A DNA stretch of 35,515 bases from Asterionella formosa (taxonomy: Eukaryota): the NCBI GenBank assembly GCA_002256025.1, contig NKIB01000071.1, positions 1 through 35,515 on the forward strand, written 5' to 3'. Under the pieces are notes generated by a model that searched no databases, had not been told where the DNA came from, and was given only the letters and a program-made list of their open reading frames with translations. The position numbers and the translations under genes are program-made. Position 1 is the stretch's first letter. Each line of letters begins with the position of its first letter. Shown in pieces: positions 1 through 35,515 of this stretch.

Positions 1-894
1 TTGACCTCGATCGACGCCCTTTGTCTGCTAATACTGCAGTCATCATTGTTTGGTCTGATATGATGACGCCGTCTCTATATCTATCGAATACCAAGATATT
101 ATTGATTGTGACGTAGACAACATTGGCGGCTGCAATGGATCGTTCACCCATAGCTTTGGACAATATTTCATTTGCGGTCGGTGTGTTGTCATTGTCACCA
201 CTGCGCTCGGGAGATACTATAACTAGATCCACCGATGAGTAGTATAGCATTTCCATTCCCCCAGCCTCGTAGATGTCGACCCCTTCATCCTGCATGGCTT
301 GCAACAACGATTGTGCGGAAATTTCTAGCGTCTCCTGCACATCTGACGTATCATTTTTCTCGCTCGCCTTTAGGACGTCTGCTAGGGTTTTGCTTTGTTT
401 TGGATAATGAAAGCATCGGCATCTACCTTTCTTTCCTGCTTTTAGATCATCACATTTGCCAGTAAAGAATTGGTTCTTGCAGAGTACAGGAGCGATTAAC
501 GATTTATCTCCTTGGTCTAGACCTTCTATCTCCTTCCTGGTTTGTGAATGCTTGTTTGCAATACAAGAAGTTTCCCTAAACGAGCCAGATTGACCTGCTT
601 CTTGTGATTTTTGTTTCGCACTTGCAGGATATTCTCCAATCGATTCGGATCGGGCTTTCCCCTTCCGTTTTGGGTCCACGCTCGGGAGGAAACTTCGACC
701 ATGTCGTTTCCCTTTGGTGTCCTGCTCTTCATCCATTTCAAACAAAGGTGCACTATCAGAAGGAATGATATCAGTCCAGATATGTAATTTCCATGTGGGA
801 TCAGCACGTCGCTCAATCATTTGAGAATGCTGTTCAAGAAAGGCGAGTAAGCTTTGAACCAAAGTTTTGTAGTTAGATCGGTTGTTCTGTTTCT
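1..894. repeat. Left arm of long inverted repeat (partner 34622-35515)
   Basis: Base-by-base comparison: 1-894 is the reverse complement of 34622-35515 with ~11 substitutions and no indels, and ~465-843 is identical. It reaches the window edge, so it may extend further. Confidence 0.97.
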
Positions 895-964
895 GCTTGC
901 GTTGCTTCGACTCGACTCGACGAGCACCGGCAATTTCCACGCGTCTTTGCCAACCCCTGACCAT
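1..964 (-). CDS. 5' part of a hypothetical protein with a CCCH-like Zn-finger motif (copy A), open at the left window edge
   Basis: ATG at 964; stop-free frame to position 1: MVRGWQRRVEIAGARRVESKQRKQKQNNRSNYKTLVQSLLAFLEQHSQMIERRADPTWKLHIWTD...LCKNQFFTGKCDDLKAGKKGRCRCFH (C-x8-C-x10-C-x3-H)...VVYVTINNILVFDRYRDG. Differences from copy B are mostly synonymous. Confidence 0.88.
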   Translation of the reverse strand, partial: MVRGWQRRVEIAGARRVESKQRKQKQNNRSNYKTLVQSLLAFLEQHSQMIERRADPTWKLHIWTDIIPSDSAPLFEMDEEQDTKGKRHGRSFLPSVDPKRKGKARSESIGEYPASAKQKSQEAGQSGSFRETSCIANKHSQTRKEIEGLDQGDKSLIAPVLCKNQFFTGKCDDLKAGKKGRCRCFHYPKQSKTLADVLKASEKNDTSDVQETLEISAQSLLQAMQDEGVDIYEAGGMEMLYYSSVDLVIVSPERSGDNDNTPTANEILSKAMGERSIAAANVVYVTINNILVFDRYRDGVIISDQTMMTAVLADKGRRSRS

Positions 965-1779
965 TGTGAATATCAGCGAAATGGTTGCAGAAAGTTTCTG
1001 TCGTTAATGTTTTAGAGAACCCAAATCTGAACTCAATGATACATTTTGCATGATTTGACAATCAGCCTCAGATTCTAATCCAGCGATAAATTGCGTGATC
1101 ACGAGTTGCAAATCAGCCGTTTCATCCGACAGTAATGTGACACTCTATGAATGCACAGGTCATCATAGGCCAATGTGATATACCGGTTTATGAGCGATGA
1201 ATTCTAAGCAAACCATCAAAGAGAGTTTCCCACAAGACAGAATCCAGAATCCTTTTCACAGAAACAATACAACAAAACACATGTCGGGATTACAGTTCGC
1301 CCCTTGCTATAAATACTGGTCGGGAAATTTACTAAATTTGTCAATTCCCGAGGAATTCAAACCCGGCGGTGATTCTCCAATGCAAAAAAGCCAATTTCTA
1401 CCAAGGAGGAATTCCATTTGGGGGGTTGCTGGAAACTTTTTGGAAAAAGCTGTTCCTTACCACACCAGAATTCTGTCAGATGTTTAAACTGACAATGGTG
1501 AATATCAAGAGGTTTTTCGCTGTTGGCAACAATTCATCAGCAATGTTTGCTCCATGGATGACTCTGTTGACGATGATGGCTGGTTTAATCAGCATCATCC
1601 AACCTTTTGGATCCTTTCTATGCTGAATTCTTGATTTATCAACATTCTGGTGCGCCCATAGATCCTGACACAGCTACTCTACAGGCAATGGCATCAACAC
1701 CGGTATGTGCTGCTATCATTGTTGGCATGCCAATATTATTTGTAAAATCGCTGTCATTGACCAGCTATACATTTTTATA

Positions 1780-2968
1780 ATTTACTCACATAGCTAACAT
1801 CGCTCATCAACAGCCTATCCAGGAGCCAATGGTGATCCTTGCTACTCAAGCAAGACTTGCATTCAAATCGAGGAAGCACACAACAAGCTTCTCAGCAATG
1901 ACAGAGAAAAGAAGTTCATCAGAGCATTTTGTTTTAAGATTATTTTCGAATGTGGTGTTTCAATTTTATCTTGCAAAGTGACCAATTTGGAGGACATCTG
2001 CAAACAAATAGAGACAGAGTTCTACCAGAGATTGCATGCATTCAAGCCCTTAGCTAGATGTATCAAATGAACACCATGAAGCTGGATTGAATGTCAGAGA
2101 GACCATGGAGGCACCAGTGGTGGTTTGCTTGCCACTCTTTGCTTTACGTGACCTTCACCACCTTGACGATAGCGCAAGGATTACCTATTTGAGCGGGCTG
2201 TATTCAGGGACCTGAAGTCTCAGTTTATCAATTAGTGTCAACCACACTATAAAGTGATCAGTGGTGAAACGCAAGATTCTGACAAAGCAGCAATTTAAAG
2301 GGTCCTTCCACATGTTTGGGTGTTTATCAAGAAAGAGTCAATTTATAAAATCAGGAACCGTATGAAGAAAGAGAGCAGGCATACTTCTGTCATCAGTGAT
2401 GCAAAGCTAGAATATTGTCCAAAAGAATTTTACCCACCTGAAGTTGTGGCATTCACCAGGGCATTCCGTGATGATCCCATTATGGCAAGAACAACAACAG
2501 GTGGGACCACAGCAGCAAGAAGTTAAAGTGCAATTGATCGATGACAATGCTGGTTCTCTTACTAAACACAAACTCAAGAGCCGTAATGAGTAAAGACGTG
2601 AGGCTAGGAATGCAAAGAGTCAGGCATTTGAATCAAAGCAATCAACAAGTGTGCATGTTGTTAATGAGAGGAATAGAGTTGCATTAATGAGAGGTAATGC
2701 TGCAATGACACTGGTGGACAACATTAAAGTGAAGAATAAAATGCATGCAATCACGTTGGCCAAGTCTGCAAACTTACCTGGTGGGCGGGTGGTGGGAACG
2801 CCTCCTTCAGATTCACATTCCTAATGTCTTTCCTGCAGCTGTTCCAAATAGAAGTACTGTCACTGCCTGCAAGTATTGAATGCTGATGTTGTATGCTCTT
2901 CTGATGAAAGAAACTCGTCATCTGATGAGGAGGACGATGAAAATAATTGTAGTGCAGTCAGTGAATGA
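1780..2968 (+). pseudogene. Degraded ORF convergent on the Harbinger transposase; possibly the element's accessory (Myb/SANT-type) gene
   Basis: Protein-like fragments broken by stops and frameshifts (e.g. 2320-2526), ending in an acidic tail (SSDEEDDENN) near 2968. The tail-to-tail position beside the transposase fits PIF/Harbinger architecture. No Myb motif was confirmed. Confidence 0.35.
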
Positions 2969-3047
2969 TTAAGTAATTTTATAATTAATTAGCTCCACAC
3001 AATTTCATCTTTTTCGATGCCTTGACGTCTGTATTGATGCACTCAAT

Positions 3048-4560
3048 TTACATATATACTTGTTTCTCACTTCTTGCAGTTGGGGCAACAATAGTGTCCT
3101 CCGCATTTTCAACATCAAAATGATTGCGACCAGCAACAAACTCTGGACTATATTGCTTATTGTTTGTTTCTAAAGCTTGCGCCATCCGACGCTGATGTCT
3201 GTTGTATCCATCAGATCCGCCCTCATTCATTCCTCTTGGGAAACCATCTTCATCATTCACTCCATCAACTGCATCTTCAACATCATCATCGCCAATCGAT
3301 TCTTTCCAGCAGTTATCCTCACACACACATCATATAATAGCAAAATATTGTGAATACAGCAGCAAATAACAACATTCCTAATTTTCTTACTGTTATTAAG
3401 TAGCATTCTTGGATTCTTGAGGATCATGAACCTCTTCTTAAGAATGCCAAAGAAACATTCCACATCTTTTCCTATCGATTCTAGATGATCGCTCCAAATC
3501 CATTCAGCGGAATCATCGAGCTGATGATTGTAGTAGGGAGCAAGCTATCAGCTGCCTGGTAGTATCCTCCATCACAAATAAAATAGGAACCCTTCTCGAT
3601 TCCAACAGTTCCATCTTGTTTGTAGTACTCCCAGACACTGTTGCTCCAAATGCTTGCCTGATTTCTTAAGTTTGTAATTGCGGCATTGAATCTTGCTGTT
3701 GTTTTGTCATCGTCACAACCGAAATGGGTATTCGAAACAGATAGAACTTTTTTGTATGTGAAATTGCAAGGCAAGCATTGGCTGGTGCCTTCTCCTTTCC
3801 TTTCCCTTGCATTGAGTGAGTAGTCCAGCAGGAAATAAATTCCAAAAGAAATGAACACAACGAATAGATCCAATGCAACCAGGCAATCCAAGATTGCGAT
3901 AGTGGTATTGAATATGTTCAATGAGATCAACTGATTCAGGAAACACTATCCATTCATTCTTTATCAGGGTCATCTACCCAACAAATTCATGAAAAAAAAT
4001 CGGGGGTTTTCTGCTGATTCCAGTGAGTTTCGCAAGTGAATCAAAAGGTATATCCCTAACCAGAACTCGCGGTATTGCTAAGACAAGGATATGACAATAA
4101 TATGACTCTTGTCCCTTATTGCCGCTCTTAAGCATGGCATCAGCTTCTCTTAAATTTTCGCTGCAGAGGCAATCAAAGACTTTATAGGGGACCCAAAATC
4201 TGTTCGTGAAAACTGCATCAAGCCTGCTTTAAAGTGGGTTCCATACTATGCCCAACGTAGATTTTTTTCATGCAATAATCAGCCTTGACAATGTATTTAG
4301 AGTAGAAATATGAATTCTTTGATGATTCAGGACCAAAATTTCGCCTTCCTCCTCTCTTCTTTGGAACATCATTCAGCGCTGATGTCTGTTCTTCATCTTC
4401 TGAGCTATCCTCAGCAATCAAGTCCAACACCTCATTGACTAAAACATTGTAGACATTATATTTCCAAGGATCATCAAAACTAGAATCCCTCTGGAAGGAC
4501 AGCAAGAAGGACGACAAGAAGAAGACCATGACGGATGAGTGGGCGATTGTTGATTGCAAT
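3048..4560 (-). mobile_element. PIF/Harbinger-superfamily DDE transposase pseudogene (Plant_tran/DDE_Tnp_4-like)
   Basis: Fragments in shifting frames: LGLPGCIGSI-CVHFFW..PAGLLTQCKGKE, YFICDGGYY, RKDVECFFGILKKRFMILKNP, ICCCIHNILL. Multiple frameshifts. Confidence 0.88.
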
Positions 4561-4646
4561 CGTTCTGGTTTTTATAAATAGAGGATGAAGAGTCGGCCAG
4601 TCTAGTCAGATTCTATTTTTAATTTTATTCTATCTAATGCTTTAGA

Positions 4647-5930
4647 TGTTAAATAAAATTTCCGAACGTGACTAATGTTTCCGAAGAAAATCGTCTGTAT
4701 TATCAGGAAAATCGAGGATTTTCCCAATGTGACTGAAAATATTTTGAGTTTGGGAAATAAAAACCCGGACAGGCCACCATTGGTTACTGCGCCGGAAAAT
4801 GACTCGAAGCAACTTGAGTTTAGAAAGAAAAATTGAATGAAAGAGAATGAAAGTTTGTAAGTCACAATGGATTGATCCAAAGATCGTGACAAGATGAGTG
4901 TGAGACTTCCAACGTTTGATGGAAATCACAAGAAATTTCAAATGTGGAATACTCGACTTGGAGTATTTGGCACAGTTAGCCGATTTGCTGAGGCATTAGC
5001 CCAATAGGTCATGATGCCAGAAAAAGGAGATGAGTTGATTGGTGAAACAACTAAGGATGGCAAGTTGAAAGCATTGGACAACAGGATAAATGATGTAGCT
5101 ATGGCAAATCTGTCAATGGCGTTCACATGCATCTGAAGGAACAATGGGATTGGTGTACAAGGCGCGTGATGACTCCTCCATCGTGGCCAAGTGGGCTAGC
5201 TTATTTGGTAATCGATGCTGTGAAAAAAGAAGAAGTATCGACCTCAAGACACAATTACAAGAGTTGAGCTCAGGCAGAAGCTCAATAAAGTGGCCATGAA
5301 GAAAAAAACAAGACCCTGCTCCATTGTTTGAGCAGGTGAGTAGTATTGAGAAACAATATAATGCTCTGGGGATCAAGATAGATGAAGATGACTTTATTGT
5401 TGTGATTCTAGATACATCACCAGAATAATGTCATGCAGTGCTTATGTCAGAACAGAGGCTTTGAAGCGATAAGTTAGCTTTGAATTATTTGGAATCAATT
5501 TGAAGGCAAGGGAAAACCCCAAAGACTAATGATGGCAATGATGCTTCTGGAATAGTATGATTGAGTGCATTTAGAGGAGTATGCTATAATTTCAAGAAAA
5601 GGGAAAATAAACCAATAAGTTTCCAGAAAATTAGAAAAATGATTAAAATAGTGCAAGACCTTAACAAATGGTGAAAATTTCAATGGAAAATGTCATTAAC
5701 GTGAAAAAGTTCATGGGCACAAAGAAGCCAATTGTTATAAAGGGCCAGAGGGTTTTAAGTCCAGAATTGCAGAGACTGCAGCATCTGCAGTTGATAATGG
5801 ATCAATAGTTGAATTTCTATTGTGTGGAATGACTTTTCCTACAGATCAGCAATACTGATGGATCCGAATGCATGGATAGCAGATGCTGCTGCCGCAGGAA
5901 CAGTCCACAACAGTCCACACATGGATGGCA
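4647..5930 (+). mobile_element. Ty1/copia (diatom CoDi-type) LTR-retrotransposon relic: gag, zinc knuckle and start of protease, 3'-truncated
   Basis: From ~4895: MSVRLPTFDGNHKKFQMW, AMANLSMAFT, WPSGLAYLV, KYRPQDTITRVELRQKLNKV, DPAPLFEQVSSIEKQYN. Knuckle remnant FNGKCH..GHKEANCY (~5680-5740). Protease-like DPNAWIADAAA..TVHNSP (~5860-5920). Possible TG...CA LTR at 4647-4779 followed by TGG (tentative). Confidence 0.85.
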
Positions 5931-6830
5931 TATCCAATTAACGTGAGCGGATTGGCGAGTATAACAGTGTAACATAGAATGTGGAATGTAGATGCCATTT
6001 GTCTAATTTTGATTTGATTGCTTCGATTGTCCGTTTTGATCGCTTCCGCCATTTTTTGAGGTTCTGTACTGTCGTTTTGGTTCTATTGTATCTACCTAAA
6101 CAAGGGCCTATTTATGTATCAATGCCTACTCTTTGAAGATGTTTTGTTGTTGATCTTATTTGTTCCTTTGTATAGTCGTTGACCATGATGTCAATATTGC
6201 TGCCAAGCAAGTAATGATTTTCTTGTTGTACTAAATCAGGTTTGCTATCTTTCTACTAGTACTCGGCGTTTGTATCACAAGCAATGTTAGATATGAATCA
6301 ATAATGGTTGATTCAAAGTGGGGAGCTGATACGGGAGTGGACTGGCTATCAAGCACTGAATCATGTGATCAGGGTTGTTTGGTTGGAGCAGCGGAAGGAT
6401 GACTGCTAGTATTTGGATTCTAGTATATAGCTATGTGAATGGTTTCAGCAACCAAATCATCTGCTGTATAGCATGATACAGATTTCAATTGTGCGTGTTC
6501 AGGGTTTCTATTTATTTTCTGGGTTGACTTCGTCCTTCGAATGTGTGATGGAAAGTCAATGCTGCCTGTGTAAGTAATAGCAAAATGCATACATCTCCAT
6601 GGAAACTGATACTTTTGCTTCATTTCTAAGCAAAAGAATTCTTTTTATTTCTCGCAATAATATGCTACTTTTTATATTTTTATATCATCCTTTGGTTGCT
6701 CCAAACATCATGTTCAATTTTTATTGATATTGTATGCTATCATCATTCTCTTGTGTTTTGATCCTCATTCTAGTACCATGCAAAATATGTATATCTATAT
6801 ATATCATATATTCTACTGTGCGTCATTTCT

Positions 6831-6953
6831 GCTGTCATGCTAAAATCTGCAATTCTATTGCCGAAAATTCCATGTGCCCCATATTGCCCCTAAAAAATTT
6901 ACTTAGAGGTGTGTACCCAAATGGCAACAAGATAGCTGGAGTGGTAATTGCCA
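6831..6953 (+). repeat. Dispersed repeat; inverted copy at 29294-29445
   Basis: gctgtcatgctaaaatc.gcaatt..a.tgccgaaaa...ccccatattgcccctaaa..ttacttaga..gtacccaaatggcaa...gatagctggagtgg.aattgcca matches the reverse complement of 29294-29445. Confidence 0.85.
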
Positions 6954-7607
6954 TTAAATTATAAATTGATATGCTATGCGACATATTGCACTTCTTTTTG
7001 CAGCCTCGATTTTGTTCTTGGAACTTCTTTGTCAGAGCACTGCAGCTTAACCAGATTTTTGTTTTCTTTTTTTTTCACTGCGGTTGCTCGCTTTGGCAAC
7101 ACATCGTCCACTTCGGCCCACAAGTCATCCAGCTTGAGGTTGCTTTCAGTGACAAAATGATATATGTTTGACTGGATTTTTTAATTGGAAAAATATCTTT
7201 GGTCGATTTGTTGAGAAAATCCAGCCTTTTTTCAATGGAAATGATTAGGTAGAAGTTCCAGTTTTGTTTGGTATGACTGTGCCCAATTGTTAATTTGCAT
7301 ACCTTATTGATGACGTCTTTACCCATTTTCTCGTTTTCCTTGTCATCATGATTGTTTTTTGCTGAACCCCTTTCATATGCTGACTCTTTGTTCATACTTT
7401 GGTCAGGACTCCTTGCTCCTGATGCACTGGCTGTCCATTCCTTTTTTCTGGAGTGTTTAAATCTGGTCTCCAAGATGGAAACTGAAGATTTAATTGTTGA
7501 TGATCCATTTTGTTTTCCTCACTTCAATGATTTTTACTTCAACATCATCTTCACTTTTGACTACAATCATCAATGAAATTCAGAGATACTCACAAAATGC
7601 CTGTTTC

Positions 7608-7858
7608 TTAGAATGCTTGAAAAACATGTATCAAAATCAGTCAATTGCATCATCATTTGCCACTTTCAAAACTTTTTTGATGATGGGCACTGAATATTTC
7701 TAAAATCTTTGGCTCACTTGCATTCTTCGCCACGCCCACCAAATATCTGTGTATTAGAATGCTTGAAAAGCATGTATCAAAAATCTCACAATTGCATCAC
7801 TTTAAAACTCGCTTGACTATTGGCACTGAGTATTTCTAAAATCATTTGCTTAACTGCA
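7608..7858. repeat. Degenerate direct duplication, two ~105-115-bp units
   Basis: ttagaatgcttgaaaa.catgtatcaaaa...caattgcatca...ggcactga.tatttctaaaatc occurs at ~7608 and ~7754. Confidence 0.8.
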
Positions 7859-7937
7859 ACTATCACCATCAATTTACATAAAAGTCCACATTTCCAGGCG
7901 TCAAGAAAAAATAATGCAATTGCTCAAGAGATTTGTC

Positions 7938-9346
7938 TCAAACATCATCGCCATTGCTGGAACTATCAAGTGGTCCTTCTTCTGTGTCAGCAATATCATG
8001 GAGCCGATCAAGGATTTCATCTTCGTTGGCGCCGTCAAGTGAAGACGTGTCAATAATATGATCTGTCTCATGAAATGGTTTGGTTGGAGATTGCATTGCT
8101 GCATCATCGCTTGCTATGGAGTTTGGCGAACAGGGAAGGGTTTCTGTTGTCGCACTTTCAGGGGAGGTTCCCATATCATTCTCGTTTGTTGTCACAACTT
8201 TCGGTTTCAGAGCAAGTGAATCGACTGCTGCAAGCGATCCTGGAACAATCGCTCCTTCACAATAAATGTAGCAGTTGCCATCGGCGGCAAGCTCGCGTGG
8301 GGCGATAGTTGCATCAACAAATACAAGGTCTTTCTGAAACGTCTCCTTGCGTCGCCTTCTTCGAGTTATAAAAATAGATAGCAATGATAAAACAAGGATG
8401 GATCCTACAGCAATGAAAGCAATTCCAATGGAAGTGACCCCAGCGTCTTCTCCTGAATCTGTATTGAACGCAACGTTGCGGTCGCTGGTACTCGAGGCGC
8501 CCCCATCATCCGCTCTTGTACCAATAAAAGACACTTTACTCACGCTCCCGGAAGCGTAAACGTCGTCGATCATACCCTGCTTAATCACTTGCAAAATTCC
8601 ATTCCGAAGATTTTCTTCCAGAACTGGTTCCTTGATGAGATCAGCGGTAATGAAAGCAGTAATTGCACCAATCATCGGCTCACAACCAGAATCTGAGATC
8701 GACGAGGATTGAACAGGAACAATGCAAGTGTCTGTGAAAGTAACAACGAGTAAGAAAACGAGACTATCCATATTCGCGTGAGAATCCATTAAATAAACCT
8801 ACCAAACTTTTCATCAATCATGTCTGCTGGGGCAGAGCCAACTCCAACAAAATATCCCAATTCGTTACTTGTCAAGGATTGCAGCCTTCGATTGGAGCTT
8901 TGTCGATTGATGCTGGAAACAACACTCTGTGTCGCGCATGTGTCTAGTCCTGTGAACGACGCTAAGTGCTCCAAAATCGATCCCTCCAGTGCTCGTAGCG
9001 TTTGGTTGAAGTCAGCACCCACTTGAGTCCACAACTCATACTGAAACGATACCACCAACGCAGAAACTCCTGTTGTGTTTTTCGCAATTCCAGTTGCATT
9101 TGTAGTATTATAGGTTAATCCTCGTTCTTTGAAACAATCGAATGATGTAATGTTACAAGGACCAGTGGTTTTATAAACATATGATGGACTTAATGGGTCG
9201 TTTGAAACCCTTTCTTGGCATGAACTGATATAGAGCACCGAAAATGGATCTGTCTCGTTATCGCTCAATTCTCTCCACGGCAGAATAGGCAACAGCAGTC
9301 CCCGACGTCTCAAAGAAGGCATACCGTCCGAGACAACAGGCATCAT
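7938..9346 (-). CDS. Single-pass membrane protein with RXL (RRL) motif and acidic cytosolic tail; 2 exons (9346-8803, 8731-7938)
   Basis: A GTAGGT...TTTCACAG intron at 8802-8732 joins the two ORFs in frame (EKF-D-TCIVP). TM helix IGIAFIAVGSILVLSLLSIFI is followed by RRRRRK; NRRLQS motif; N-glycosylation sequons. Confidence 0.8.
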
Positions 9347-10083
9347 TCAGAAGGCAATGGTGCAAAGCCCGCGAAGCAGCTTGCCAAGTCGGCTTGTCCA
9401 AAATCAGCACTGTTGCGAGAGTGAGGTTTTCCTTCTGTTCACCTTTTCGTCTCTCTATAAACAGCAGAGGATGAGGATGCTTCCTTCCTGTCACACGTGA
9501 ATACTTTCAACAATGATGAGGCAGATCTTGATTGAAAATGTGTTTCTTTCTATATAGAACGGAATATTATCCGGAAACAAGTGATGACACAAACAACGCA
9601 AATGCATGAAGCTTGGTTTTTGTCTCTATGTACTTGGAACATGATGTATCATTTTGTTCCTGTCAAAAGTCATGCCCTGCCTCCTCCCGAAGAAGCTTTT
9701 GGCGGTGTCACTGGCACATCCAGCACAGCAGTTAAATCCAGAATACTTCGCATTTAATAACATGTTGCATTGTATGTATGATACACATATATTTATGACA
9801 CTCCGACAACAACGTTCGGTATCGACTCTCGCCGGCCGGATAAATCGCCTTATTTTTAAAAAGGTTCTCAACGGACGCGGAACCATGTGGCAAAAAACTT
9901 ACGTAGCAACTTTCTAACTTGGTGGCCGGCGGAGCATCAAATCATAGTGTTCACCCACATCTATATATATCACCGGTAGTTAGCAACGAGGGCTCGTAAT
10001 AAATGCACCACGTCGGCGCTCATACAGGAAGCCAATGAATACTGTACCTGATGTGACATACATGCAAGTTGCAGTAATTTTGC

Positions 10084-10400
10084 TTATTTCACGATCTTTA
10101 TATGCTGGGTAACTGTGCATGTGTGGTAACACTCAGAACCTTGTCCAACTTGACTTCCTTGGCCAATCATGAAGCACAAGCTCCAATAATGCTCCAGCCA
10201 AAAGCCCTTAGTATTAAAAAAATTATTCCAACCAAATGGTGTATATGATTTGATTTGCATGGGGGGATGAACAGAGTGAAGGAGAAAAGTATCAGCCATA
10301 GAAATATCAGTAAGAGCCAGAGTGGGAGGAGCAGCATGGGCAGAAAGCGCCATGGTCAAGGGTGATTGAAGCAGCAGAAGAACTGTGGGAAGAAAGCCTG
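10084..10400 (-). pseudogene. Possible non-LTR retrotransposon C-terminal fragment
   Basis: PFGWNNFFNTKGFWLEHYW resembles, from memory, the 'IGW-NF--G-----W' motif seen C-terminally in algal LINE ORFs. Short and degraded. Confidence 0.25.
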
Positions 10401-10879
10401 TAGGCCGTGTACCATTGTAGTATAATTAATAGAGGACAAGTACCCAAGACATTTAATGTTGCATTGTTGAAAAAGTGAGTTTATCCATGATATATACATG
10501 GTCAGCCAGAACACCAACCATTACCAGCAGGTTGTAGCTGCAATCGCGAAATCGAGTATCGGTACCAGATAGCATGAAGAATGTCATCATATCCCGGTAC
10601 TACCAGTATCCAGGTAGACTGCCAGTATTATCTGGTCATCTGGCTGGTACTACTTACTACCTGGAAGGTCCAGTAGTGCATGTCTTATGCGCACCTTTTC
10701 AGTTACAATTAACTGCCAATGATATGTCACATGCCTGCAAGACGAGATAAGCAAGCTTTCGATGAAAATAATATCATTCCTAAATTAATTTTGGAAATCA
10801 TTAGACTTTTATTGACCAATGACGATTTGCAGTATCAAATTCTGAACACAACTTGGATTTGCTGCATGATGAACCTGTT

Positions 10880-11457
10880 CAGCAAACCGTCTTCTAGCTT
10901 CGGAATCCAAAAAGGAATCATTATGTGTTTACAACTTGCTGATAACGACTAGAACTCGTTGGCAAATATGAATAGATTTTCTGAATGACCCGTTTGCAAA
11001 TGAAGTATATACATTAGCTAACATACACAACTATGAACTATATACCCCTTAATAGCCGTGCTAATGATACTATGAACAACTGTATTCAGCCGCTGGAAGA
11101 CGGTTTGCTATACTGGTTTAGCAAGCAGCAACTTTTATGTAGTCGTAGTCAGTAGCTTCTAGTTGCTTGTTTTCAACAATTTCTATTAATATTCAGCAAT
11201 TTATATTTGTGATAATGATTACTATGACCATAGATTTATATATTACTACCTTACATATGTTCATTACCACGGCTATCAGGGGTACCAGTTGTATGTATGA
11301 TATGAAAATATCTACTTCATTTATGCAAAGGATCATTCAGAAAATCTATTCATAGCTATTCAGCAACAATTTCTAGTTGCTGTCAGCAGATTCTATTCTT
11401 AGTCAGCAAGTTCTAAACATTGAAAGACATTCTTATTCATTTTCCGGAACTAGAAGT
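10880..11457. mobile_element. Foldback/MITE-like element with ~190-bp degenerate inverted arms
   Basis: 10890-11075 pairs with 11250-11457: tatgaatagattttctgaatga vs tcattcagaaaatctattcata; atagccgtg.taatga vs tcatta.cacggctat; aacttgctga vs tcagcaagtt. Non-coding. Confidence 0.7.
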
Positions 11458-11859
11458 CAGCATAGCCCATCATCAAGTTCAAGAGCTTTTGCACATGAAT
11501 CTGTTGGTCATGTTGGTGTGGATTTGCCATGCTCAACATTAAAAAGGTAATAGATCAACTAAATCATGTTTTCCTGCACTACTTGATGTTTTTACCTGTA
11601 GCGCTGCTCATGGCGGAGATATTGATAAATCAAGCGGTGTGGGAGCCTACCCGGGTATTCTGTTTTTGAGTAAGGAAACCAACAAAATAATTCCGACATG
11701 ATCAATTTGAGTTTAACAAGGGATTTAATTAATGCGCAAAATGTTATATATAATAGGGTCAGGGTTTTTGCTAAGACCCGGTAGTAGGTCTACGGGGTTT
11801 ATCTGTTGGCCCCAGAAATTGGACCCAGCCGTACATAAGCTACGTCTTGATGCTAGGTG

Positions 11860-11945
11860 TAGCAGGTACCAGGTATCAGTACCTGGACCATGGTAAACAG
11901 GTACTCCCTGGTACTCCCCGTACCCAGGTACCCTGGTACCGTATT
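11860..11945. repeat. GGTACC/CCAGG-rich low-complexity tract
   Basis: caggtaccaggtatcagtacctggaccatggtaaacaggtactccctggtactccccgtacccaggtaccctggtacc. Confidence 0.7.
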
Positions 11946-12543
11946 CGTGTTCTCCTTCTGATCGTTCGTGACTCCGGATGTCTTTGTTAAGAACCGGGAA
12001 TAGTTTTCTTTTCGTCCTGTAAATATGTACAATATGTGATACCGGTACGCCGGTATGTATATACCGGCATATATGCAAGCGAAAAAATAAGTGGGCCAAA
12101 AATGACATCAGCATCTACGCAGCACTGCTACGTATCGGTAGCTATGGTGCCAGTTACCTGGATATTAGCGATTGGAAAACCAACTAACCACCCACCACAA
12201 AAGACTCGCTCTGCCCCTGATAAGAAGAAAATGTATGTACATGTCTATATATAATGATGGAAAAAATCAGACAAGTATCAAATAAGTATATTGACTACCT
12301 AAATTAAACAGATATACGTGCCGGGATATAACGGATATATAAAATACTCACGATGAGAACAAAACAATTTTTGATCACAGCAAGTCATCGACATCACCCA
12401 TATAGCTTTGTCCTTTTCGAATCCTCGTTGACGACCCGTTCTTGTCACTCTAGCAGCATACGCAAGCTGAACATATAGTCTAGCATCCTCCATTCTCTTC
12501 AAAATTATATTCTTTTGAAAGGGTTTTCTCAGACAAGTTCAAA

Positions 12544-13164: not shown

Positions 13165-13337
13165 AAAACCCGTCCGTTCCTGATTGCGCAGTGATGTGTG
13201 ATGGAGATATTGCATGGTAAACTTCTTGTGAATCAAGCTATAGAGTATAGCCCAACACTGTGGAGCTAGTTAAGTTACAATCCCCCCTTCACGTTAGAAA
13301 TGTAGCACATTAGGTTCTCATGTGGTTCAAGGGTCGA

Positions 13338-21732: not shown

Positions 21733-23727
21733 TCAGACATGGTTTGGTTTGATCATTTCGTAACCACTGCGGATAGAACTGTGATGCCTATGTAAACGGT
21801 ACACCCAGAACAACCCCAAGCAAGGCAACAGCAAAATGGCACTTATATAGCCAGTAAAGATAACGCTGTGAGTGGTCGGAATAGAGTTGGGACGATATTG
21901 CCAAGGTAAAGTGTTGATTTCATATAACATTGCTCCCACAGCCCAACCAACTTTTTGGCCATTCACAATTTCTGTAGAAGTGACATAATCGTCTAATTCG
22001 AACCCATAGCCATTGTGTAGGATTTGAAAGGCATAAGCTGAGCGGAAGCAATAAGTCGCGATATCCTCAGCTTCGTCAATTCTATTACCGGCAAGGTTTG
22101 TAACCTGATCTAGGCTCATTTCACAGTAAGTGCGTGCAGCAGTTTGGACATCACGAAGCGAGGAACGAGCTGGGAGGTCCAGAAATTGCCAGACGTCAAA
22201 ATAGTTGGAGAACGCAAGGAATTCACCAAATCGCTCCGACTGCTGGGGAAGATCTGGCTGATACACACCGGCGAAGGAGCAGTCTCCACGATGGGAGAAC
22301 TCGCACCACTGGTTTTGCCCTTTATGAAGCAGCTGACGGGCAAGCTCGTTACACTTGTCGAAGTCTCCCTTTGCATTGTCATTCCTTAGGATCGCATTAC
22401 GGTAACCGTACTCGGACGAGTTTTCTAACCCAGATGTTTCGTCATCGCTGTAATTTGCCCACGTCTCATAACCATCCGACTTTATATGAATTTCAGAGCG
22501 CATCTTCCTGACAGTTCCACCTGGAAGGCAGGGGTGGTTGATACCATCAACAAGTCGCTGAGACCAGTCCTTCCCAGTAATGAGAGCCGCCTCGAGGCGG
22601 GCCTGAGCTTCGTTGATACCGTAAAAGAGAAATGAGTGGGCGTACAGGTTCCAATGTTTACCCTGTCCAATCTGAAGCTTGAAAAGGTCAGCCATTATGT
22701 CTCCATTGGGTTCGTAGAAGCTAATCTGGGTACTTGCTCCTCCCATATCAAGGGCACCGTAAGTCAACCTTGGTTCATTAACAGTACCAACACCTTCACT
22801 ATCCTCAATAAGGGTACCAAGCAAGAAATTGACACCAGTCCAGCCATATATGGCTTCTTCCTCCCCACTAAGGACTCGAGCTTGTTCATCTTCGAATTGA
22901 AAAGGACAAAAAGTGTTGTTGGAAAAAAGATTTCGAACAACGTTGATAACTCTCGCTCTATCCAATGGAGTAAGTATACGCATACCAGCAGTAGCGCGGA
23001 AGTAAACAGGAAAAGATCCGAAATTGCTTTCTTTCGTGTGCAACACTGTCCTGACAAAGTCCATGAACGGTTCAAGATATGAAGCAATGCCGTTCAAGAG
23101 CTGATCGTCGGGCAACTCAGCGAAAGTTGCAATCCCCGGACGAATTCGATCTGTCCAACGAGAGTCAGTTCCTGGATAACTGAGCTTGCCTCCTGAGACT
23201 GCGTCCTCTACCTCTTTTTCACTGTGGAGAATTCGAGGGTTCCATTCATACAGGTGAAGACGTGTTCCTGTGCTTCCTGCATCAATCTTAAGAAAAAAGG
23301 AGAAAAAATAACGCACAAGATTGGATTTGATCAAACAAATGACAATTATAAGGGCTTCTCGCGTTGCTTTTCTTACCATCATCCCATGGACAGTCGATTC
23401 TTTAATACCCGAGTGGTCGTACATATCCTTCATATTCTTCTTTCGCTTCTCAAGTTTCTTGGAAGCTTTCTCGGCCTGTTTGGCCTTGTATTCCAACTCT
23501 TGTTCCATATACTCGTTGTCAAGCTCCTTATTCAGTTGGTATATCTCGTTTCTACGGTCATCGTCCTCTTTCGTGCTGCCATCTTGGTGATGATGGTGTT
23601 TCAAGTGCCGATGGCTGGTGCTTTGGTGCCCTTGGCCAATTGATTCGCCCAGGCGTACCGAATATTCTTCCCAGGATTCCCTAGCCTCGAGAGGGTGCCG
23701 TTGAATCGATCGAAGTTTTGTTTCCAT
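21733..23727 (-). CDS. GDA1/CD39 family nucleoside phosphatase (apyrase/NTPDase) with C-terminal TM; in-frame 90-bp intron 23376-23287
   Basis: All five apyrase conserved regions: IDAGSTGTR, ATAGMR, LSGEEEAIYGW, DMGGASTQ, GWAVGAML. Removing GTAAGA...TTCTTAAG restores HGMM-IDAGSTG. Confidence 0.95.
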   Translation of the reverse strand: METKLRSIQRHPLEARESWEEYSVRLGESIGQGHQSTSHRHLKHHHHQDGSTKEDDDRRNEIYQLNKELDNEYMEQELEYKAKQAEKASKKLEKRKKNMKDMYDHSGIKESTVHGMMVRKATREALIIVICLIKSNLVRYFFSFFLKIDAGSTGTRLHLYEWNPRILHSEKEVEDAVSGGKLSYPGTDSRWTDRIRPGIATFAELPDDQLLNGIASYLEPFMDFVRTVLHTKESNFGSFPVYFRATAGMRILTPLDRARVINVVRNLFSNNTFCPFQFEDEQARVLSGEEEAIYGWTGVNFLLGTLIEDSEGVGTVNEPRLTYGALDMGGASTQISFYEPNGDIMADLFKLQIGQGKHWNLYAHSFLFYGINEAQARLEAALITGKDWSQRLVDGINHPCLPGGTVRKMRSEIHIKSDGYETWANYSDDETSGLENSSEYGYRNAILRNDNAKGDFDKCNELARQLLHKGQNQWCEFSHRGDCSFAGVYQPDLPQQSERFGEFLAFSNYFDVWQFLDLPARSSLRDVQTAARTYCEMSLDQVTNLAGNRIDEAEDIATYCFRSAYAFQILHNGYGFELDDYVTSTEIVNGQKVGWAVGAMLYEINTLPWQYRPNSIPTTHSVIFTGYISAILLLPCLGLFWVYRLHRHHSSIRSGYEMIKPNHV

Positions 23728-25479: not shown

Positions 25480-26220
25480 AGAATATGTGCAGTGCATCAA
25501 TCCAGATCTCATATGATATTTTGGTGATGTATAGATCAATGCATCGGTATACTTAGATCCTATTTGCAATGTGATGCTATCATATCAATTATTTGCTTTT
25601 ACTGTTTTTAAAATCGAACAAATAAATTAATATATTATAAGATTTATGATCAATCAATCTTATTGCTATGATGTATTGATAACACTTGTGTACCTATTTC
25701 ATCACATTAATTGTTATTGTATTATTTTAACATTATCATACTTTGATTAGAAATTTATCATAAACGTTATAATAAATGATCACAGTTTTTATGGTCAATT
25801 TATGATCTATATGTGATAGACATTCATATTTTGTTAATGCATGCATCGACATATCCCTATATTTGGTACTATTCGTAATATCATAATATATTATCAAACT
25901 TTCAATGTTTATTGGGAACTGCATCCTGCATACTATGGAGTATATGATACTGTAAGTCACTGCTGTACATACGTCTGCAGTATCATACTACCTGTAATGT
26001 ACACAACAAGTCGACAGTGTACATAATCACACGCTAAGTATGTTTGAGGCAACAGACAGCAGTTCCAACGAGCAAATGACGATATGGGTAACAACGTTTT
26101 CAGTGGCAAACCAAAATGATCATGATGAGTGACACTCATCCCTCTATTGATGATGACATGGATACCGGGTTTTCCAGAAGCAAACAACAATGATGAGAGC
26201 CACATGTCCTTCTATTGATA
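25480..26220 (+). repeat. AT-rich dispersed repeat, direct copy at ~31885-32620
   Basis: Collinear shared blocks: gcatcaatcca, tatacttagatcctat, ctatgatgtattgataacacttg, attgggaactgcat, gttccaacgagc, ccctctattgatga, gcaaacaacaatga. Confidence 0.88.
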
Positions 26221-27726: not shown

Positions 27727-28072
27727 GTAGTCAGAGTAGTAAGCGAGAAACAGAACACAATATGTTCAGGACTGTTGCTACTGCAGCAGGACAGTAAATC
27801 ATCATAGTTTCAGGATTGTATGATCATAAAATTGAAAAAGGATAGTCGGAGTAGTAAGCGAGCAACAGAGCATCATATGTTCATGACTGGCTGTTGCTAC
27901 TGCAGCGGGACAGTAAATCATCAGAGTTTCAGGATTGAATAATCGTAAAATTGAAAGAGGGTAGTCGGAGTAGTAAGCAAGCAACAGAACACCATATGTT
28001 CAGGACTGTTGCTACTGCAGTGGGACAGTAAAGCATCATAGTTTCATGATTGTATAATCATATAATTGAAAA
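27727..28072. repeat. Tandem repeat, 3 x ~115-119 bp
   Basis: Units start at ~27727, 27841 and 27960: tagtc.gagtagtaagc...atatgttca.gact..gttgctactgcag..ggacagtaaa.catca.agtttca.gattg...aattgaaa. Confidence 0.92.
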
Positions 28073-28269
28073 CAAGATATGCCATTACTCAAAGTCAGTT
28101 CTGACTTTGATATGATAATGTAAATAGCACTGTTGGTTTTATGGTATCATATCTAGACAGCGTAAAATAATATATGTAGTGGCTGATGATTCATTTCATT
28201 GTAGCAACACCTGATTTTAAGATCATCGAACTTTAAGCAAGACAACGACAACAGTTATCTAGTAGCAAA

Positions 28270-29684: not shown

Positions 29685-30551
29685 TCACATTATCACAGAA
29701 ATAAATTTTTCAATATGGAGGAAGAGGAGCTGGGGTAATAGTAAATTGATGTTGGTAAGGTTGAGGTGGATGGGTGTGTGTGTGCTGGAGTTGAAGCCGG
29801 CTGGTGGTGGTGGTTGACTGCTGGCCGGATGCAGCAGATGATAGTATGCTTGAGGAGGAGCAGGAGGAGGAGCATGGGAGTAGTACATTTGTTGTGGTGG
29901 CGCCGGCAGTGAATGAAAATATGGCTGCTGATAGGAATATGCAATGTTGTCGTGAGGGGGAAGGGGACCGGAATGGTGGATTGTTGCTTGTTGTGGAGGT
30001 GGCGGACCAGAACTGGTGTATATGTGTTGAGGTGTTTGAGGCGGAAGGGAGTAGTAGTGAACTGGAGCCGGAGCCACAGCCACAGCAGGAGGTGCCGCAG
30101 TAGCAGACATCAAAATAACTTTATAATCAACAGTAGGATCGTCAATTGGAGTTGAAATTCCAAAAGATTTGTTCAAATCAGGAGGAACAAATGCAAAGTC
30201 GGAAGTATAAATTTCGGGAGTTTCAAGCTGGTCCTTGGCATCTTCAAACTTCTCAAAAACTGCAATCCTTGCTTTATGCTGCATTTCCTTTGATTGGAGC
30301 TGGTACCTGGCATTTATTTCCGCTGATCCATGCCTGGATTTATCAAGAATAATCGTTGTAGGTAATGCAACACTAGAGTTGACAAGTGAAGAAATCATAC
30401 TCTTCCTCCTACCATGGGCAGTGCAACGAGCAGCATTATCCATGCCTGAAGCTGTAGCTAAGTCAACGCAAAGCCTAGTAGCATAGCCTTTACCAAAGTA
30501 GTCTCCCTTCTTGTGTCCTGCCTTGTATGTTAGCCCTAGCTTGCGTCGGTT
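29685..30551 (-). mobile_element. Tyrosine recombinase C-terminal exon (Crypton-like element), 5'-truncated, with P/Q/H/Y-rich tail
   Basis: Open frame from a splice acceptor at 30552 (branch point TTCTAAC upstream): ...FGKGYATRLCVDLATASGMDNAARCTAHGRRKSMISSLVNS...KSRHGSAEINARYQ, carrying H-x-x-R, second H and catalytic Y of the integrase family. The first catalytic Arg exon is not found. Confidence 0.72.
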
Positions 30552-30649
30552 CTTAGTACCAATTATACGAGAAGCAATGTAGATAGAGACGCATGTGAGT
30601 TAGAACATAGATATGCATATGATGCGCTATAGCGAGCTAAAATTGACAT

Positions 30650-31884: not shown

Positions 31885-32825
31885 GGTATGTGATATGCAT
31901 CAATCCATATCACAAATCATATTATGGTGATGTACATATCATCGCATCTGTATACTTAGATCCTATCCACTGTATAATGCTATCAAATTAACTGTTGGCT
32001 TTTACTGTACACATGAAAAGTTGAATATATATATATATTAAGTAACATTTTATGATCAATTGATTCATTTTCTATGATGTATTGATAACACTTGCGTACA
32101 CATTTTATCTTATTTTATTATCATTGTATTATTTTAACATAATCATATTTTGATTAAAAATATATCATAAACATTTTAAAAAATCATCACAGTTCTATGA
32201 TCAATGCATCATAGCTATGTGATGTACTTTATTCAATATTACATATCATACTTTGGTGATGTATGCATTGATGTAACCCTATTGTGATATCACATTATCA
32301 TCTTATCAATCATTCAATGTTGATTGGGAACTGCATTCTGCATCGTACTACGGAGTATGATATTATAACGCACTTTAGTAGCTAAGTCACTCCTGTAATG
32401 TACACAAGTCAACAGTGCACATACACACACACTAATCAGGTTTGAGGAACAGACAGTGGTTCCAACGAGCGAATGATGATACCACAGGTACCAATTTTTC
32501 CAGCGGCAAACCGCAATGATGAAGGACACTTGTCCCTCTATTGATGAGGATGACATGGACACCGACTTTTCCAGGAGCAAACAACAATGAAGATACACAC
32601 CCACTTGTTGCTCTATTGATGGTAACAAAGGCATATGCGTACAAGTTCAACAGTGATTATAAGAACAACATACCAATGAAAACAAGTCGACAGTGTGTGT
32701 ATGCACACGCCAAGGAGGTTTGTGGCAACAGACAGTTCCATCAAGCAAATGACGATATGGATATCAAATATTTCCTACAAGCAAACAGCAATGAAGAGAG
32801 CCACTTGCTTTCGCTCTCTTGATGG
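31885..32825 (+). repeat. AT-rich dispersed repeat (copy of 25480-26220) plus internal partial duplication at ~32680-32825
   Basis: Collinear with 25480-26220; acaagtc.acagtg...caacagacag...gcaaatgacgatatgg...gcaaaca.caatga.gagagccac recurs at 32680-32825. Confidence 0.85.
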
Positions 32826-32959
32826 TATCAAAGATGCGGATAAATTCAAAAGTAAATACAAGTGCAGCATGCGAAATGCGGAAACGAGCGATATGAAAAA
32901 GAAATTGTAATCAAAATCATTCTATAACTAACTGATTTATTTATCCTGAAGGACAAGAA

Positions 32960-33948
32960 TGTCCTCAGGATCCTCCATTTATTGGTGAGCAATCCAAACG
33001 GTTGTGAAAGGAAATAGTCGTATGCATCTTTGTTTGTTGATTCCCTTTGATGCCATTGACTTCCAACAAATGGACAGAGCACTTGATCAGTCAATGTGTA
33101 AGCAGCATCCTCACTTACTATGTATTGTCCTTGATGAAGGTTGGATACAATCTGAAAAAGTTTTGTTCTTTCAAATGCCTTCTGACCTGGACATTTTCCT
33201 GGTGCCACAACACCAAAGTATAGGAAACAACAATTACTGTCGCAAACAGCTTGAACATTCAATCCATAAGACATTTAATGCCCAGACCAATATGCTTGAG
33301 TGAATCCTTGAATGAGGCCATCACAATCCTTTTTCCTTGGTTTAGCAATAGTCTGTAACTATCCATCTATAGTACCAATGCATCCACAAAATAGTCGCTG
33401 CTCGCTTTTTTCAAGGAATCCATTCATCACTGTTTGTCTCTCCTTATTTATTGTAGGTAATTTTATTGATAATGCTGTGCAGGAGTTCACCTCATCTTTA
33501 GTGATGTCATAAACAGATGGATAAGAACTTGGATAGACATGACAAATGTCTATGAGGTTTCCACCTGCAAGCCAGCAAAGGCCAATGGCAAGGATCAACT
33601 CAGGATAAATATGCTGATTTGAGCTGTATAAACCGGAACTTGCATTTGATTTGACAACATTAACTGTGATGGAAGGTCAAAGGAGTTCCAGTAGTTGATA
33701 GAAAGCTTCAAGAGACATGTGATATTCACAATGAAATCATGAAGACCCTTTGTGACATGCTCATTCCAGTGAATTCATTGATGTTCCCATTTTGGAATTT
33801 GCACTGGCTTCAAGTTTGGTCCATAGAGCTCCAAAAATGATAATGCAACTGCTGCACTTAACAAAAAGCTCTGTTGTTCTGCTTCCATATCATGATTGTC
33901 AATGACATCCCAACTGTCAGGTTCTTCCGGTTGATTTGTCATTGTCAT
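32960..33948 (-). mobile_element. Second PIF/Harbinger (HARBI1-like, DDE_Tnp_4) transposase pseudogene, different family from 3048-4560
   Basis: MSLEAFYQLLELL, LAIGLCWLAGG, LFCGCIGTIDG, GLNVQAVCDSNCCF, APGK, YIVSEDAAY, YFLSQ-FGLLTNKWRILR. Stops, frameshifts, an internal deletion and 3' truncation. Confidence 0.9.
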
Positions 33949-34548
33949 TACAGTTGTGATAGTTGAATAATTGACGCACACATTGCAAATATTTTTGCAG
34001 AGTCTGATGCACATGTTTGCAGAGACATAAAGAAAACGGCTAACTGTATTGCCATTACAGAGATATATTTGTGAAATGTATCTCTGGAAAATTTCCATTT
34101 TTTTTCCTGACAACAAAAAATAATTTGTGTCTCTGTTAAGATTGGCCCTACATACTTATCTTCACTCTCGTATTGACTTATATTCATATATACATCCCCC
34201 GTATTTCTTCGATATTTCGTCCCCCTTGAATATGTAGCCTTAATAAAAAGTGAATTGAATGTACCATGTCGTACCGGTATCCCCTCTTCGAAAATTGTCG
34301 CTTCGAGTTCCTCTTATTCATCGCATGGTTGCCCCTTCCAGTCCGTTTCTGTTGGTGGAACGAGAGTTCTAAACATCGAATTGTTGACTGTCCACTCGTC
34401 AGATAGAAGAATTAACAAGCGAAGAGCATTAAATAGAGTTGACTCTAAGTACAATTAATGAAACCCACGAGTTACTATTCCTTTTTATCCAAACTCAAGA
34501 ACCATTGTCCTGCAAACTGAATAAACAAGCACAGCTGGTATCGTCACT

Positions 34549-35515
34549 ATGGTCAGAGGTAACTATCAAAGCCGTATAGAGAAGGCCGAGGCTCGACGTA
34601 TAGCTTCAAAACAACTTAAAAAGAAGCAGAACAACCGATCTAACTACAAGACTTTGGTTCAAAGCTTACTCACCTTTCTTGAACAGCATTCTCAAATGAT
34701 TGAGCGACGTGCTGATCCCACATGGAAATTACATATCTGGACTGATATCATTCCTTCTGATAGTGCACCTTTGTTTGAAATGGATGAAGAGCAGGACACC
34801 AAAGGGAAACGACATGGTCGAAGTTTCCTCCCGAGCGTGGACCCAAAACGGAAGGGGAAAGCCCGATCCGAATCGATTGGAGAATATCCTGCAAGTGCGA
34901 AACAAAAATCACAAGAAGCAGGTCAATCTGGCTCGTTTAGGGAAACTTCTTGTATTGCAAACAAGCATTCACAAACCAGGAAGGAGATAGAAGGTCTAGA
35001 CCAAGGAGATAAATCGTTAATCGCTCCTGTACTCTGCAAGAACCAATTCTTCACTGGCAAATGTGATGATCTAAAAGCAGGAAAGAAAGGTAGATGCCGA
35101 TGCTTTCATTATCCAAAACAAAGCAAAACCCTCGCAGACGTCCTAAAGGCGAGCGAGAAAAATGATACGTCAGATGTGCGGGAGACGCTAGAAATTTCCG
35201 CACAATCGTTGTTGCAAGCCATGCAGGATGAAGGGGCCGACATCTACGAAGCTGGGGGAATGGAAATGCTATACTACTCTTCGGTGGATCTAGTTATAGT
35301 ATCTCCCGAGCGCAGTGGTGACAATGACAACACACCGACCGCAAATGAAATATTGTCCAAAGCCATGGGTGAACGATCCATTGCAGCTGCCAATGTTGTC
35401 TACGTCACAATCAATAATATCTTGGTATTCGATAGATATAGAGACGGCGTCATCATATCAGACCAAACAATGATGACTGCAGTATTAGCAGACAAAGGGC
35501 GTCGATCGAGGTCAA
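34549..35515 (+). CDS. 5' part of the hypothetical CCCH-like Zn-finger protein (copy B), open at the right window edge
   Basis: ATG at 34549; 322 stop-free codons: MVRGNYQSRIEKAEARRIASKQLKKKQNNRSNYKTLVQSLLTFL...LCKNQFFTGKCDDLKAGKKGRCRCFH...LVFDRYRDGVII. Confidence 0.9.
   Translation, partial: MVRGNYQSRIEKAEARRIASKQLKKKQNNRSNYKTLVQSLLTFLEQHSQMIERRADPTWKLHIWTDIIPSDSAPLFEMDEEQDTKGKRHGRSFLPSVDPKRKGKARSESIGEYPASAKQKSQEAGQSGSFRETSCIANKHSQTRKEIEGLDQGDKSLIAPVLCKNQFFTGKCDDLKAGKKGRCRCFHYPKQSKTLADVLKASEKNDTSDVRETLEISAQSLLQAMQDEGADIYEAGGMEMLYYSSVDLVIVSPERSGDNDNTPTANEILSKAMGERSIAAANVVYVTINNILVFDRYRDGVIISDQTMMTAVLADKGRRSRS
34622..35515. repeat. Right arm of long inverted repeat (partner 1-894)
   Basis: Reverse complement of 1-894, ~99% identical. 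Confidence 0.97.

Follow-up and report, generated by a model that had tools for sequence, protein, structure and literature searches.

A flip/flop region on chromosome XIV of Saccharomyces, described by Salzberg et al. (2022, PMC9731477), comprises 24 kb with 15 genes between 4-kb inverted repeats (IRs) that consist of paralogous genes and are homogenised. The region has inverted recurrently in the course of evolution, and no inversion was recorded in ~53,800 mitoses and 950 meioses. It is the closest known case for a locus of the diatom Asterionella formosa, contig NKIB01000071.1 (35,515 nucleotides, nt; "the window" denotes this whole stretch of DNA), in which the two arms of an IR lie inside two outward-facing genes, paralogues A and B, and bracket a segment of 33.6 kb. 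Two features of an IR-flanked, homogenised region are found at this locus, namely an IR of paralogous genes on both sides of a multi-gene segment and concerted evolution. The explanation that we favour, with a probability of roughly 60%, is that A and B are old F-box paralogues whose middle part has been homogenised by gene conversion, and that the segment between them is occasionally, and rarely, inverted by crossover.

A repeat search of the window returned a single long inverted pair, 1–949 and 34567–35515 (949 nt, 97% complementary, with a spacing of 33,617 nt). When the arms are compared base by base, 11 mismatches are found in 1–890 (positions 128, 152, 236, 266, 279, 336, 383, 464, 844, 866 and 890), equivalent to 98.8% identity, and 32 in 1–949. 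Identity falls in a step, from 1.2% mismatch in 1–890 to 21 mismatches among the 59 positions of 891–949, where mismatches are dense from 895 inward. The left arm (1–949) is therefore near-identical to its partner over 1–890 and diverged, yet still homologous, over 891–949; the right arm (34567–35515) is its mirror, and both are cut by the window ends at the same repeat position. Over the last 295 codons, the arms show seven synonymous and three non-synonymous differences. An initial annotation of this DNA had described inverted arms of ~894 bp and ~99% identity that are coding and belong to outward-facing genes, which is borne out both by these figures and by the two open reading frames (ORFs), 2–964 on the minus strand and 34549–35514 on the plus strand, that exit the window and have their ATG codons at the inner edge of the repeat. 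Because each arm runs up to its end of the window and both break off at one and the same point of the repeat, the length of ~900 bp is a lower bound set by the contig end. The outermost 127 nt are identical in both arms, the first mismatch being at 128, and the contig ends have the look of a short-read (de Bruijn-graph) contig entering a node common to two copies with k = 127, a value in use by common assemblers. Most likely, the window is one whole short-read contig of a diatom nuclear genome that runs from inside one gene copy to inside the other.

The true size of the repeat emerges from Logan contigs of sequencing runs, the source of all run evidence reported here, which were compared with positions 1–20000 of the window. 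Two contigs of 2548 nt, one from the DNA run X5 and one from the RNA run X15, contain window positions 1–843 plus 1705 nt beyond position 1, together nt 122–2669 of the coding sequence. An independent contig of 2882 nt from X8, a run of a different study and year, covers 1–1177 and has an outer stop identical to that of the X5 and X15 contigs. X5 and X15 perhaps belong to one sampling campaign and were counted as one line of support, with X8 as the second. In the protein alignment, the outer limit of these contigs falls within about three codons of the point at which two alternative C-terminal tails, X and Y, diverge. The full repeat is ~2.6 kb long and corresponds to codons ~27–890 of both paralogues, so that the initial size of ~894 bp holds for the part resolvable in the window and falls short of the whole. 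The equal length of the DNA and RNA contigs suggests that there is no intron in the shared part. One other X8 contig matches the left arm from 724 inward and continues outward for at least 255 nt that are absent from the window (a 30-mer from this loose end has no occurrence in the window at ≤3 mismatches); it may represent a third, truncated copy, or another strain or species in that metagenome.

Paralogue A (2–964, minus strand, ATG at 962–964) is represented by the first 321 codons (translation P0001) of a gene for ~974–984 amino acids (aa) and has the N-terminus MVRGWQRRVEIAG; paralogue B (34549–35514, plus strand, ATG at 34549–34551) is represented by its first 322 codons (P0002) and has the N-terminus MVRGNYQSRIEKAE. 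The first ~26 residues differ, with MVRGWQRRVEIAGARRVESKQRKQKQ in A and MVRGNYQSRIEKAEARRIASKQLKKKQ in B, and beyond them only three residues distinguish P0001 from P0002. In run X1, the likely origin of the window's assembly, which contains 0.91 of the window's sampled words, arm letters at variant sites stand at about half depth (681/1400 at 152, 673/1303 at 236 and 695/1330 at 279) and single-copy contig depth is ~770–980, which fits two copies and not a multi-copy family. Both copies are transcribed: the two N-terminal types are present in the poly-A metatranscriptome X15 (34.3 of 78.6 at site 844), and the 30-nt consensus of an X15 contig whose loose end at 894 extends for 223 nt is B-arm sequence. 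Types A and B are also both found among public proteins. Two other identities were considered for the repeat and rejected. A and B are not alleles, given that their 5' flanks lack similarity and that the window joins both on one molecule, and a mobile element with terminal IRs (Polinton-like, linear plasmid or virus) is incompatible with arms that are a host gene conserved across diatoms and with ORFs that exit at both ends.

Full-length relatives show how the two genes end. The longer-protein search gave 28 relatives at E ≤ 0.001, nearly all of 820–1040 aa, and the one organism named among them is a member of the Bacillariaceae. The top match, P0003 (983 aa), differs from P0001 at one of the 321 residues (99.7% identity) and represents a cluster of 20 sequences on contigs of ~3.0–3.4 kb, of which 15 are listed, 13 of them full-length and two as fragments. 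In an alignment of these 15 members with the two window fragments, residues ~27 to ~890 are nearly identical among cluster members, and the last ~90 residues take the form of two distinct tails. Tail X ends in ...KQDGFARGMSMQG (...GFARGMSMQG) in proteins of 983/984 aa and represents the conserved ending of the family (...KKDGFARGMSxRG in most homologues); tail Y, in proteins of 974/975 aa, has a six-residue deletion and ends in ...GLAHGRAKSYN. Identical 3' halves had initially been named as a point that would count against an exchange of ends; in fact the two tails differ, over those last ~90 residues. The architecture needed for an in-frame exchange, also part of the first description, is likewise present, in that both frames would survive a crossover at any point of the shared ~2.6 kb, which would swap promoter and N-terminus A or B against the tails X and Y. 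Differences among the four possible proteins would be limited to nine residues and one indel within aa 1–26 and to the final ~90 residues.

The history of this arrangement can be examined in a related species with the same end types, which reaches 58% identity to P0001 across the first 321 residues. P0004 and P0045 (994 aa) combine an A-type N-terminus with an X tail; in P0046 (971 aa), a Y tail accompanies an N-terminus of type B, which has Ile-10 and SKQLKKK in common with the B of the window; P0012 is an N-terminally incomplete Y form. In all three full-length sequences of this species, A goes with X or B goes with Y. Segment identities were determined between A-X and B-Y of the window species, between A-X (P0004) and B-Y (P0046) of the related species, and then between the species. 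In the window species and the related species, respectively, the two forms share 17/26 and 16/26 residues at aa 1–26, 33/34 and 19/34 at aa 27–60, 96/96 and 26/76 at aa 61–156, 164/164 and 160/166 at aa 157–320, 367/370 and 356/378 at aa 321–690, 198/202 and 72/197 at aa 691–892, and 42/82 and 32/87 at aa 893–983. Between species, identity is 106/164 at aa 157–320, 227/368 to 232/368 at aa 321–690, and ~36% in all three comparisons at aa 691–892. At the N-terminal end, A matches A of the other species in 24/26 residues and A of the window matches B of the relative in 17/26; at the C-terminal end, X matches X in 44/88 and Y matches Y in 45/78, with cross-type values of 34/87 and 30/79.

The middle of the protein is 99–100% identical within the window species, 94–96% within the related species and 62–65% between them, and this much greater likeness within than between species cannot be explained by constraint. 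The ends, in contrast, group by type across species. This is clearest for N-termini of type A and for tail Y; with N-termini of type B, identity by itself gives no such separation (18/27 between the two B forms versus 19/26 between B of the window and A of the relative). The limits of the near-identical tract also differ, lying at aa ~27–892 in the window species and aa ~157–690 in the related species. At aa 691–892, the window sequence has the same identity (36%) to each of the relative's two forms, which favours neither copy as the conversion donor there. A middle that follows the species, ends that follow the type and shifted tract limits together point to concerted evolution by gene conversion between old paralogues; on the strength of these alignments, the locus bears the signature of an old duplication, the middle of which evolves in concert. 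Contigs of X5 and X8 mix letters of the A and B arms (X5 at 152, 236, 279, 336 and 383; X8 at 152, 236 and 383), and this mosaic does not enter the case for conversion, since single-base bubbles can be merged when contigs are built.

Under the favoured explanation, double-strand breaks would be repaired with the other arm as template, and repeated gene conversion of this kind between the inverted arms would keep the ~2.6-kb middle alike, each copy retaining a distinct promoter with codons 1–26 (A or B) on one side and a distinct final stretch of ~90 codons with the 3' end (X or Y) on the other. A crossover between inverted repeats inverts the intervening DNA, and gene conversion implies that these two arms interact. 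Some of the repair events would presumably resolve as crossovers, inverting the ~33.6-kb segment and swapping A and B reciprocally against X and Y. Such inversion would be expected to be rare, an occasional by-product giving rise to orientation differences between strains and not a regulated switch within a clone; inversion on population or evolutionary timescales is plausible.

The competing explanations differ in what they make of the near-identity of the arms and of the sequences in which the ends are combined. A recent partial duplication without gene conversion, in which the near-identical middle is simply the young duplicate of part of a gene, would account for arms that differ by only 1.2%. 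It is nevertheless highly improbable, since both end types exist in a species whose middle is only 62–65% identical (A-type 24/26, Y tail 45/78, with the same A-X and B-Y pairing), the limits of near-identity are not shared by the two species (aa ~27–892 versus ~157–690), and two origins would be needed, with the old ends grafted on each time. A frequent or regulated inversion within a clonal population, which would re-pair A and B with X and Y and yield four receptor forms, is suited to the architecture, with an IR inside genes, ends that differ and frames that are kept, and to the transcription of both A and B. There is a precedent as well, in that yeast flip/flop IRs can also be parts of genes (part of SLA2 in Ogataea and the 5' end of MATa1 in Ascoidea rubescens; PMC6692504). 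Furthermore, the 13 full-length listed members of the cluster comprise three A-X (P0003, P0033, P0040), three A-Y (P0031, P0034, P0044), three B-X (P0035, P0036, P0043) and three B-Y sequences (P0037, P0039, P0041), plus P0038 with a hybrid tail. The four promoter and protein combinations that the initial annotation had foreseen do exist in public assemblies, three times each, but these are short-read and unphased, and chimeras explain the combinations equally well. Because short-read assemblies cannot phase 2.6 kb of near-identity, and because internal variants reassort too, the N/C combinations are not evidence of physical recombinants: residues 400 and 442, encoded 126 nt apart, are found in all four pairings (D-A in six, D-T in three, G-T in four and G-A in one of the 14 sequences covering both), which indicates mosaic assembly of copies, alleles and strains, and an even 3:3:3:3 split is expected equally well from arbitrary path choice during assembly. 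No link between N-terminal type and tail was found in the Logan contigs examined, where the graph breaks at both repeat limits, and metagenome scans with P0003 and P0046 found no matching locus. A switch of this kind is also hard to reconcile with a segment in which Pfam scans recognised housekeeping enzymes and transposon remnants and no recombinase or cell-type genes, and which shows no sign of a silencing site, with the small extent of the differences among the four proteins described above, and with the closest analogue (PMC9731477), whose orientation stayed the same throughout the mitoses and meioses recorded. We regard it as very unlikely. The flip-flop locus originally proposed retains its repeat, its in-frame architecture and its differing ends, but nothing supports a programmed switch, and the Pfam scans found neither recombinase nor cell-identity genes in the segment. 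A further reading, in which a recurrently inverting flip/flop region re-pairs promoter and N-terminus (A or B) with the last propeller strands and tail (X or Y) of two SCF (Skp1–cullin–F-box) substrate receptors, populations and perhaps clones hold four receptor forms, and the end differences are under selection owing to the effect of the re-pairing, is at present rather doubtful.

A further rival is an error of assembly. Two copies would then exist, with a contig misjoined (for example within 4670–7413), such that the arms do not bracket this 33.6 kb or are not inverted. The contig indeed passes through a 2.7-kb stretch whose word depth is 25–100 times the single-copy value and through a 469-bp element with about 900 times that value; the X8 contig that matches from 7413 onward extends leftward with sequence that the window lacks; each end of the contig falls within a collapsed repeat, which places the assembler in a tangled graph region; and the comparison with the runs covers the left 20 kb. 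On the other hand, the window contains no N, an empty-site contig of X5 that joins 18667 to 19137 bridges the element at 18668–19136 and confirms the path there, X5 and X8 provide co-linear pieces at 99% identity over most of 1–20000, and the divergence of the X8 contig at 7413 can be a transposon insertion polymorphism. A misjoin is, on balance, unlikely. Several points weigh against the explanation by conversion and rare crossover itself. The path over 4670–7413 (25–100x) is without an independent bridge, with the X8 contig diverging left of 7413; the related-species sequences likewise come from assemblies; Logan contigs may merge single-base differences and cannot prove arm identity in other strains; and the 3:3:3:3 split of N/C combinations is also expected under free, frequent exchange. 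P0035, a B-X form with a pairing unseen in the relative, comes from a divergent strain, where one Logan contig of 3052 nt carries it whole, and could be a true recombinant. Finally, the choice between "rare" and "frequent" inversion reflects a prior taken from other systems and not a measurement.

The two repetitive stretches can be characterized further. The region 4670–7413, at 25–100 times single-copy word depth in X1, X5 and X8, is transposon-rich, has no Pfam family and is the weakest point of the path; a 30-mer from the X8 loose end at 7413 is not present in the window at ≤3 mismatches, and an empty-site proof over 4670–7413 failed. The 469-bp element at 18668–19136 has internal subrepeats of 28–33 nt and TACTGGT on both sides, and its word depth in X1 is ~780,000, compared with a single-copy value of ~850. 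This very-high-copy element, which resembles a miniature inverted-repeat transposable element, is polymorphic for insertion, being missing from the X5 contig that joins 18667 to 19137.

The protein encoded by the two genes has a single Pfam match, F-box-like PF12937 at aa 345–390 (28.7 bits versus a cutoff of 24.3), and the Pfam scan of the full-length protein gave no WD40 match at E ≤ 0.1. An AlphaFold model from 26 homologues (mean pLDDT, the predicted local distance difference test, 71.9) places F-box helices before a strand-rich part at aa ~448–932, and the best Foldseek matches are Cdc4, FBXW8, Fbw7 and beta-TrCP (E 1e-9 to 1e-7, with low TM-scores of 0.19–0.22 for the query and 0.36–0.41 for the target). 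By eye, a C-x8-C-x10-C-x3-H spacing can be recognized at aa 162–186, and C162, C171, C182 and H186 hardly vary among family members; this CCCH-like N-terminal spacing has no match to a zinc-finger model of Pfam. On the basis of the predicted structure, the gene can be read as a probable FBXW-like substrate receptor (F-box plus putative beta-propeller) of an SCF ubiquitin ligase, with a diatom-specific N-terminal extension. Nothing relevant to this F-box family was found among the literature matches listed. In another diatom lineage, P0014 and P0022 are 74–90% identical over most of their length and 150/150 in one internal stretch, with N- and C-termini that differ, and patchy homogenisation may be a recurrent trait of this gene family.

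The segment between the start codons (965–34548) contains both promoters and 5' untranslated regions, about eight host genes and transposon debris. From left to right, the passenger genes are a two-exon gene without a Pfam family (7938–9346, minus strand; intron 8732–8802, 71 nt), an ORF of 206 aa without a Pfam family that is partly under an RNA contig (12544–13164, plus strand), a MaoC-like dehydratase gene (13338–14234, minus strand; PF01575, E 7.9e-09; intron 13761–13835, 75 nt), a glycosyltransferase family 64 gene (14879–16186, plus strand; PF09258, E 2e-48), a histidine phosphatase (branch 1) gene (16340–17179, minus strand; PF00300, E 7.9e-15), an ORF of 273 aa under an RNA contig and without a Pfam family (17685–18506, plus strand), an ABC1 atypical kinase gene composed of two ORFs that are probably separated by a short intron (19725–21671, plus strand; PF03109, E 8.4e-32 and 7.3e-10), and a GDA1/CD39 nucleoside phosphatase gene (21733–23727, minus strand; PF01150, E 3.8e-74). 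In the two-exon and MaoC-like genes, X15 RNA contigs skip the intron. Closer to the arms lie a Harbinger/PIF-like transposase remnant (Plant_tran / DDE_Tnp_4; 3260–3945, minus strand), 2.3–3 kb inside the left arm, and a degenerate Harbinger/PIF-like transposase (DDE_Tnp_4; 32849–33676, minus strand), 0.9–1.7 kb inside the right arm. These two remnants were considered as a common origin of the duplication and dismissed, as comparison of their proteins showed no similarity. No recombinase family, cell-identity genes or regulators were found in the segment when 19 + 69 = 88 ORFs were scanned with Pfam.

In the right part of the segment, co-linear direct repeats at 25484–26203 and 31887–32774 (~80% identity, 6.4 kb apart) are possibly the old terminal repeats of an element without recognisable ORFs; the ORFs between them, including a proline-rich one at 29685–30599, have no Pfam family, and a tandem array of three 118-nt copies is located at 27772–28123. 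With respect to the source of the DNA, seven further DNA runs from four studies (X2–X8), recorded as freshwater metagenomes or without an organism, contain 0.70–0.77 of the window's sampled words, lake-water metatranscriptomes contain 0.24–0.25, and X5 and X8 match the window at 99%. The source organism appears to be a widespread freshwater diatom.

If both orientations exist, the locus would be, as far as the matches listed go, the first report from the nuclear genome of a diatom of a flip/flop region that inverts through an IR: no nuclear IR-mediated inversion in diatoms was found among them, and the diatom and algal papers there concern organelle genomes or plastid-to-nucleus transfer. Inversion would then go beyond a mere change of position, since two putative ubiquitin-ligase receptors would exchange their ends and the genes would thus be altered. 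Even if the segment is static, the locus is a clean case of concerted evolution confined to the central part of two old paralogues, the tract being placed differently in each species. In either case, chimeric "isoforms" of this gene in short-read assemblies or metatranscriptomes of the organism should not be accepted at face value.

Comparison with described systems places the locus beside IR-flanked regions homogenised by conversion. Like the Saccharomyces chromosome XIV region (PMC9731477), it consists of a segment of tens of kb (24 kb there, 33.6 kb here) between inverted paralogous coding genes, the repeats are homogenised within and diverged between species, and there is no dedicated recombinase. 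In the yeast region, however, the IR comprises whole genes, the proteins are unchanged by inversion and both orientations are documented across strains and species, whereas here the IR is the middle of a gene, a crossover would give reciprocal chimeras, and one arrangement is seen, from one contig, in a diatom and not a yeast. The yeast mating-type flip/flop regions FF1/FF2 (Krassowski et al. 2019, PMC6692504) resemble the locus in that the IR may be part of a gene and short-read contigs end in it, and any inversion here would likewise be homologous recombination between the IRs. Unlike the diatom locus, FF1/FF2 carry MATa and MATalpha at their ends, a centromere or telomere silences one end, and both orientations have been demonstrated. 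The ends of the diatom segment are not alternative cell-identity gene sets; they are the promoters and N-termini of one gene family, and the passengers are housekeeping genes. Membership in the mating-type class was ruled out, the 88 ORFs scanned containing no alternative identity genes. A site-specific invertase switch or shufflon was set aside too, there being no recombinase family among the 88 ORFs and the repeat being 2.6 kb of coding homology. In bacterial shufflons, as here, inversion re-pairs a constant gene part with alternative ends; shufflons need a site-specific recombinase and short sites, in contrast to the long generic homology found in this eukaryote. Human inverted segmental duplications and palindromes, the subject of PMC3961182 and bioRxiv 10.1101/2021.12.20.472354, have arms much longer than the 2.6-kb, gene-internal arms described here, and they share with this locus conversion-homogenised arms of the kind that predispose the spacer to recurrent inversion by non-allelic homologous recombination.

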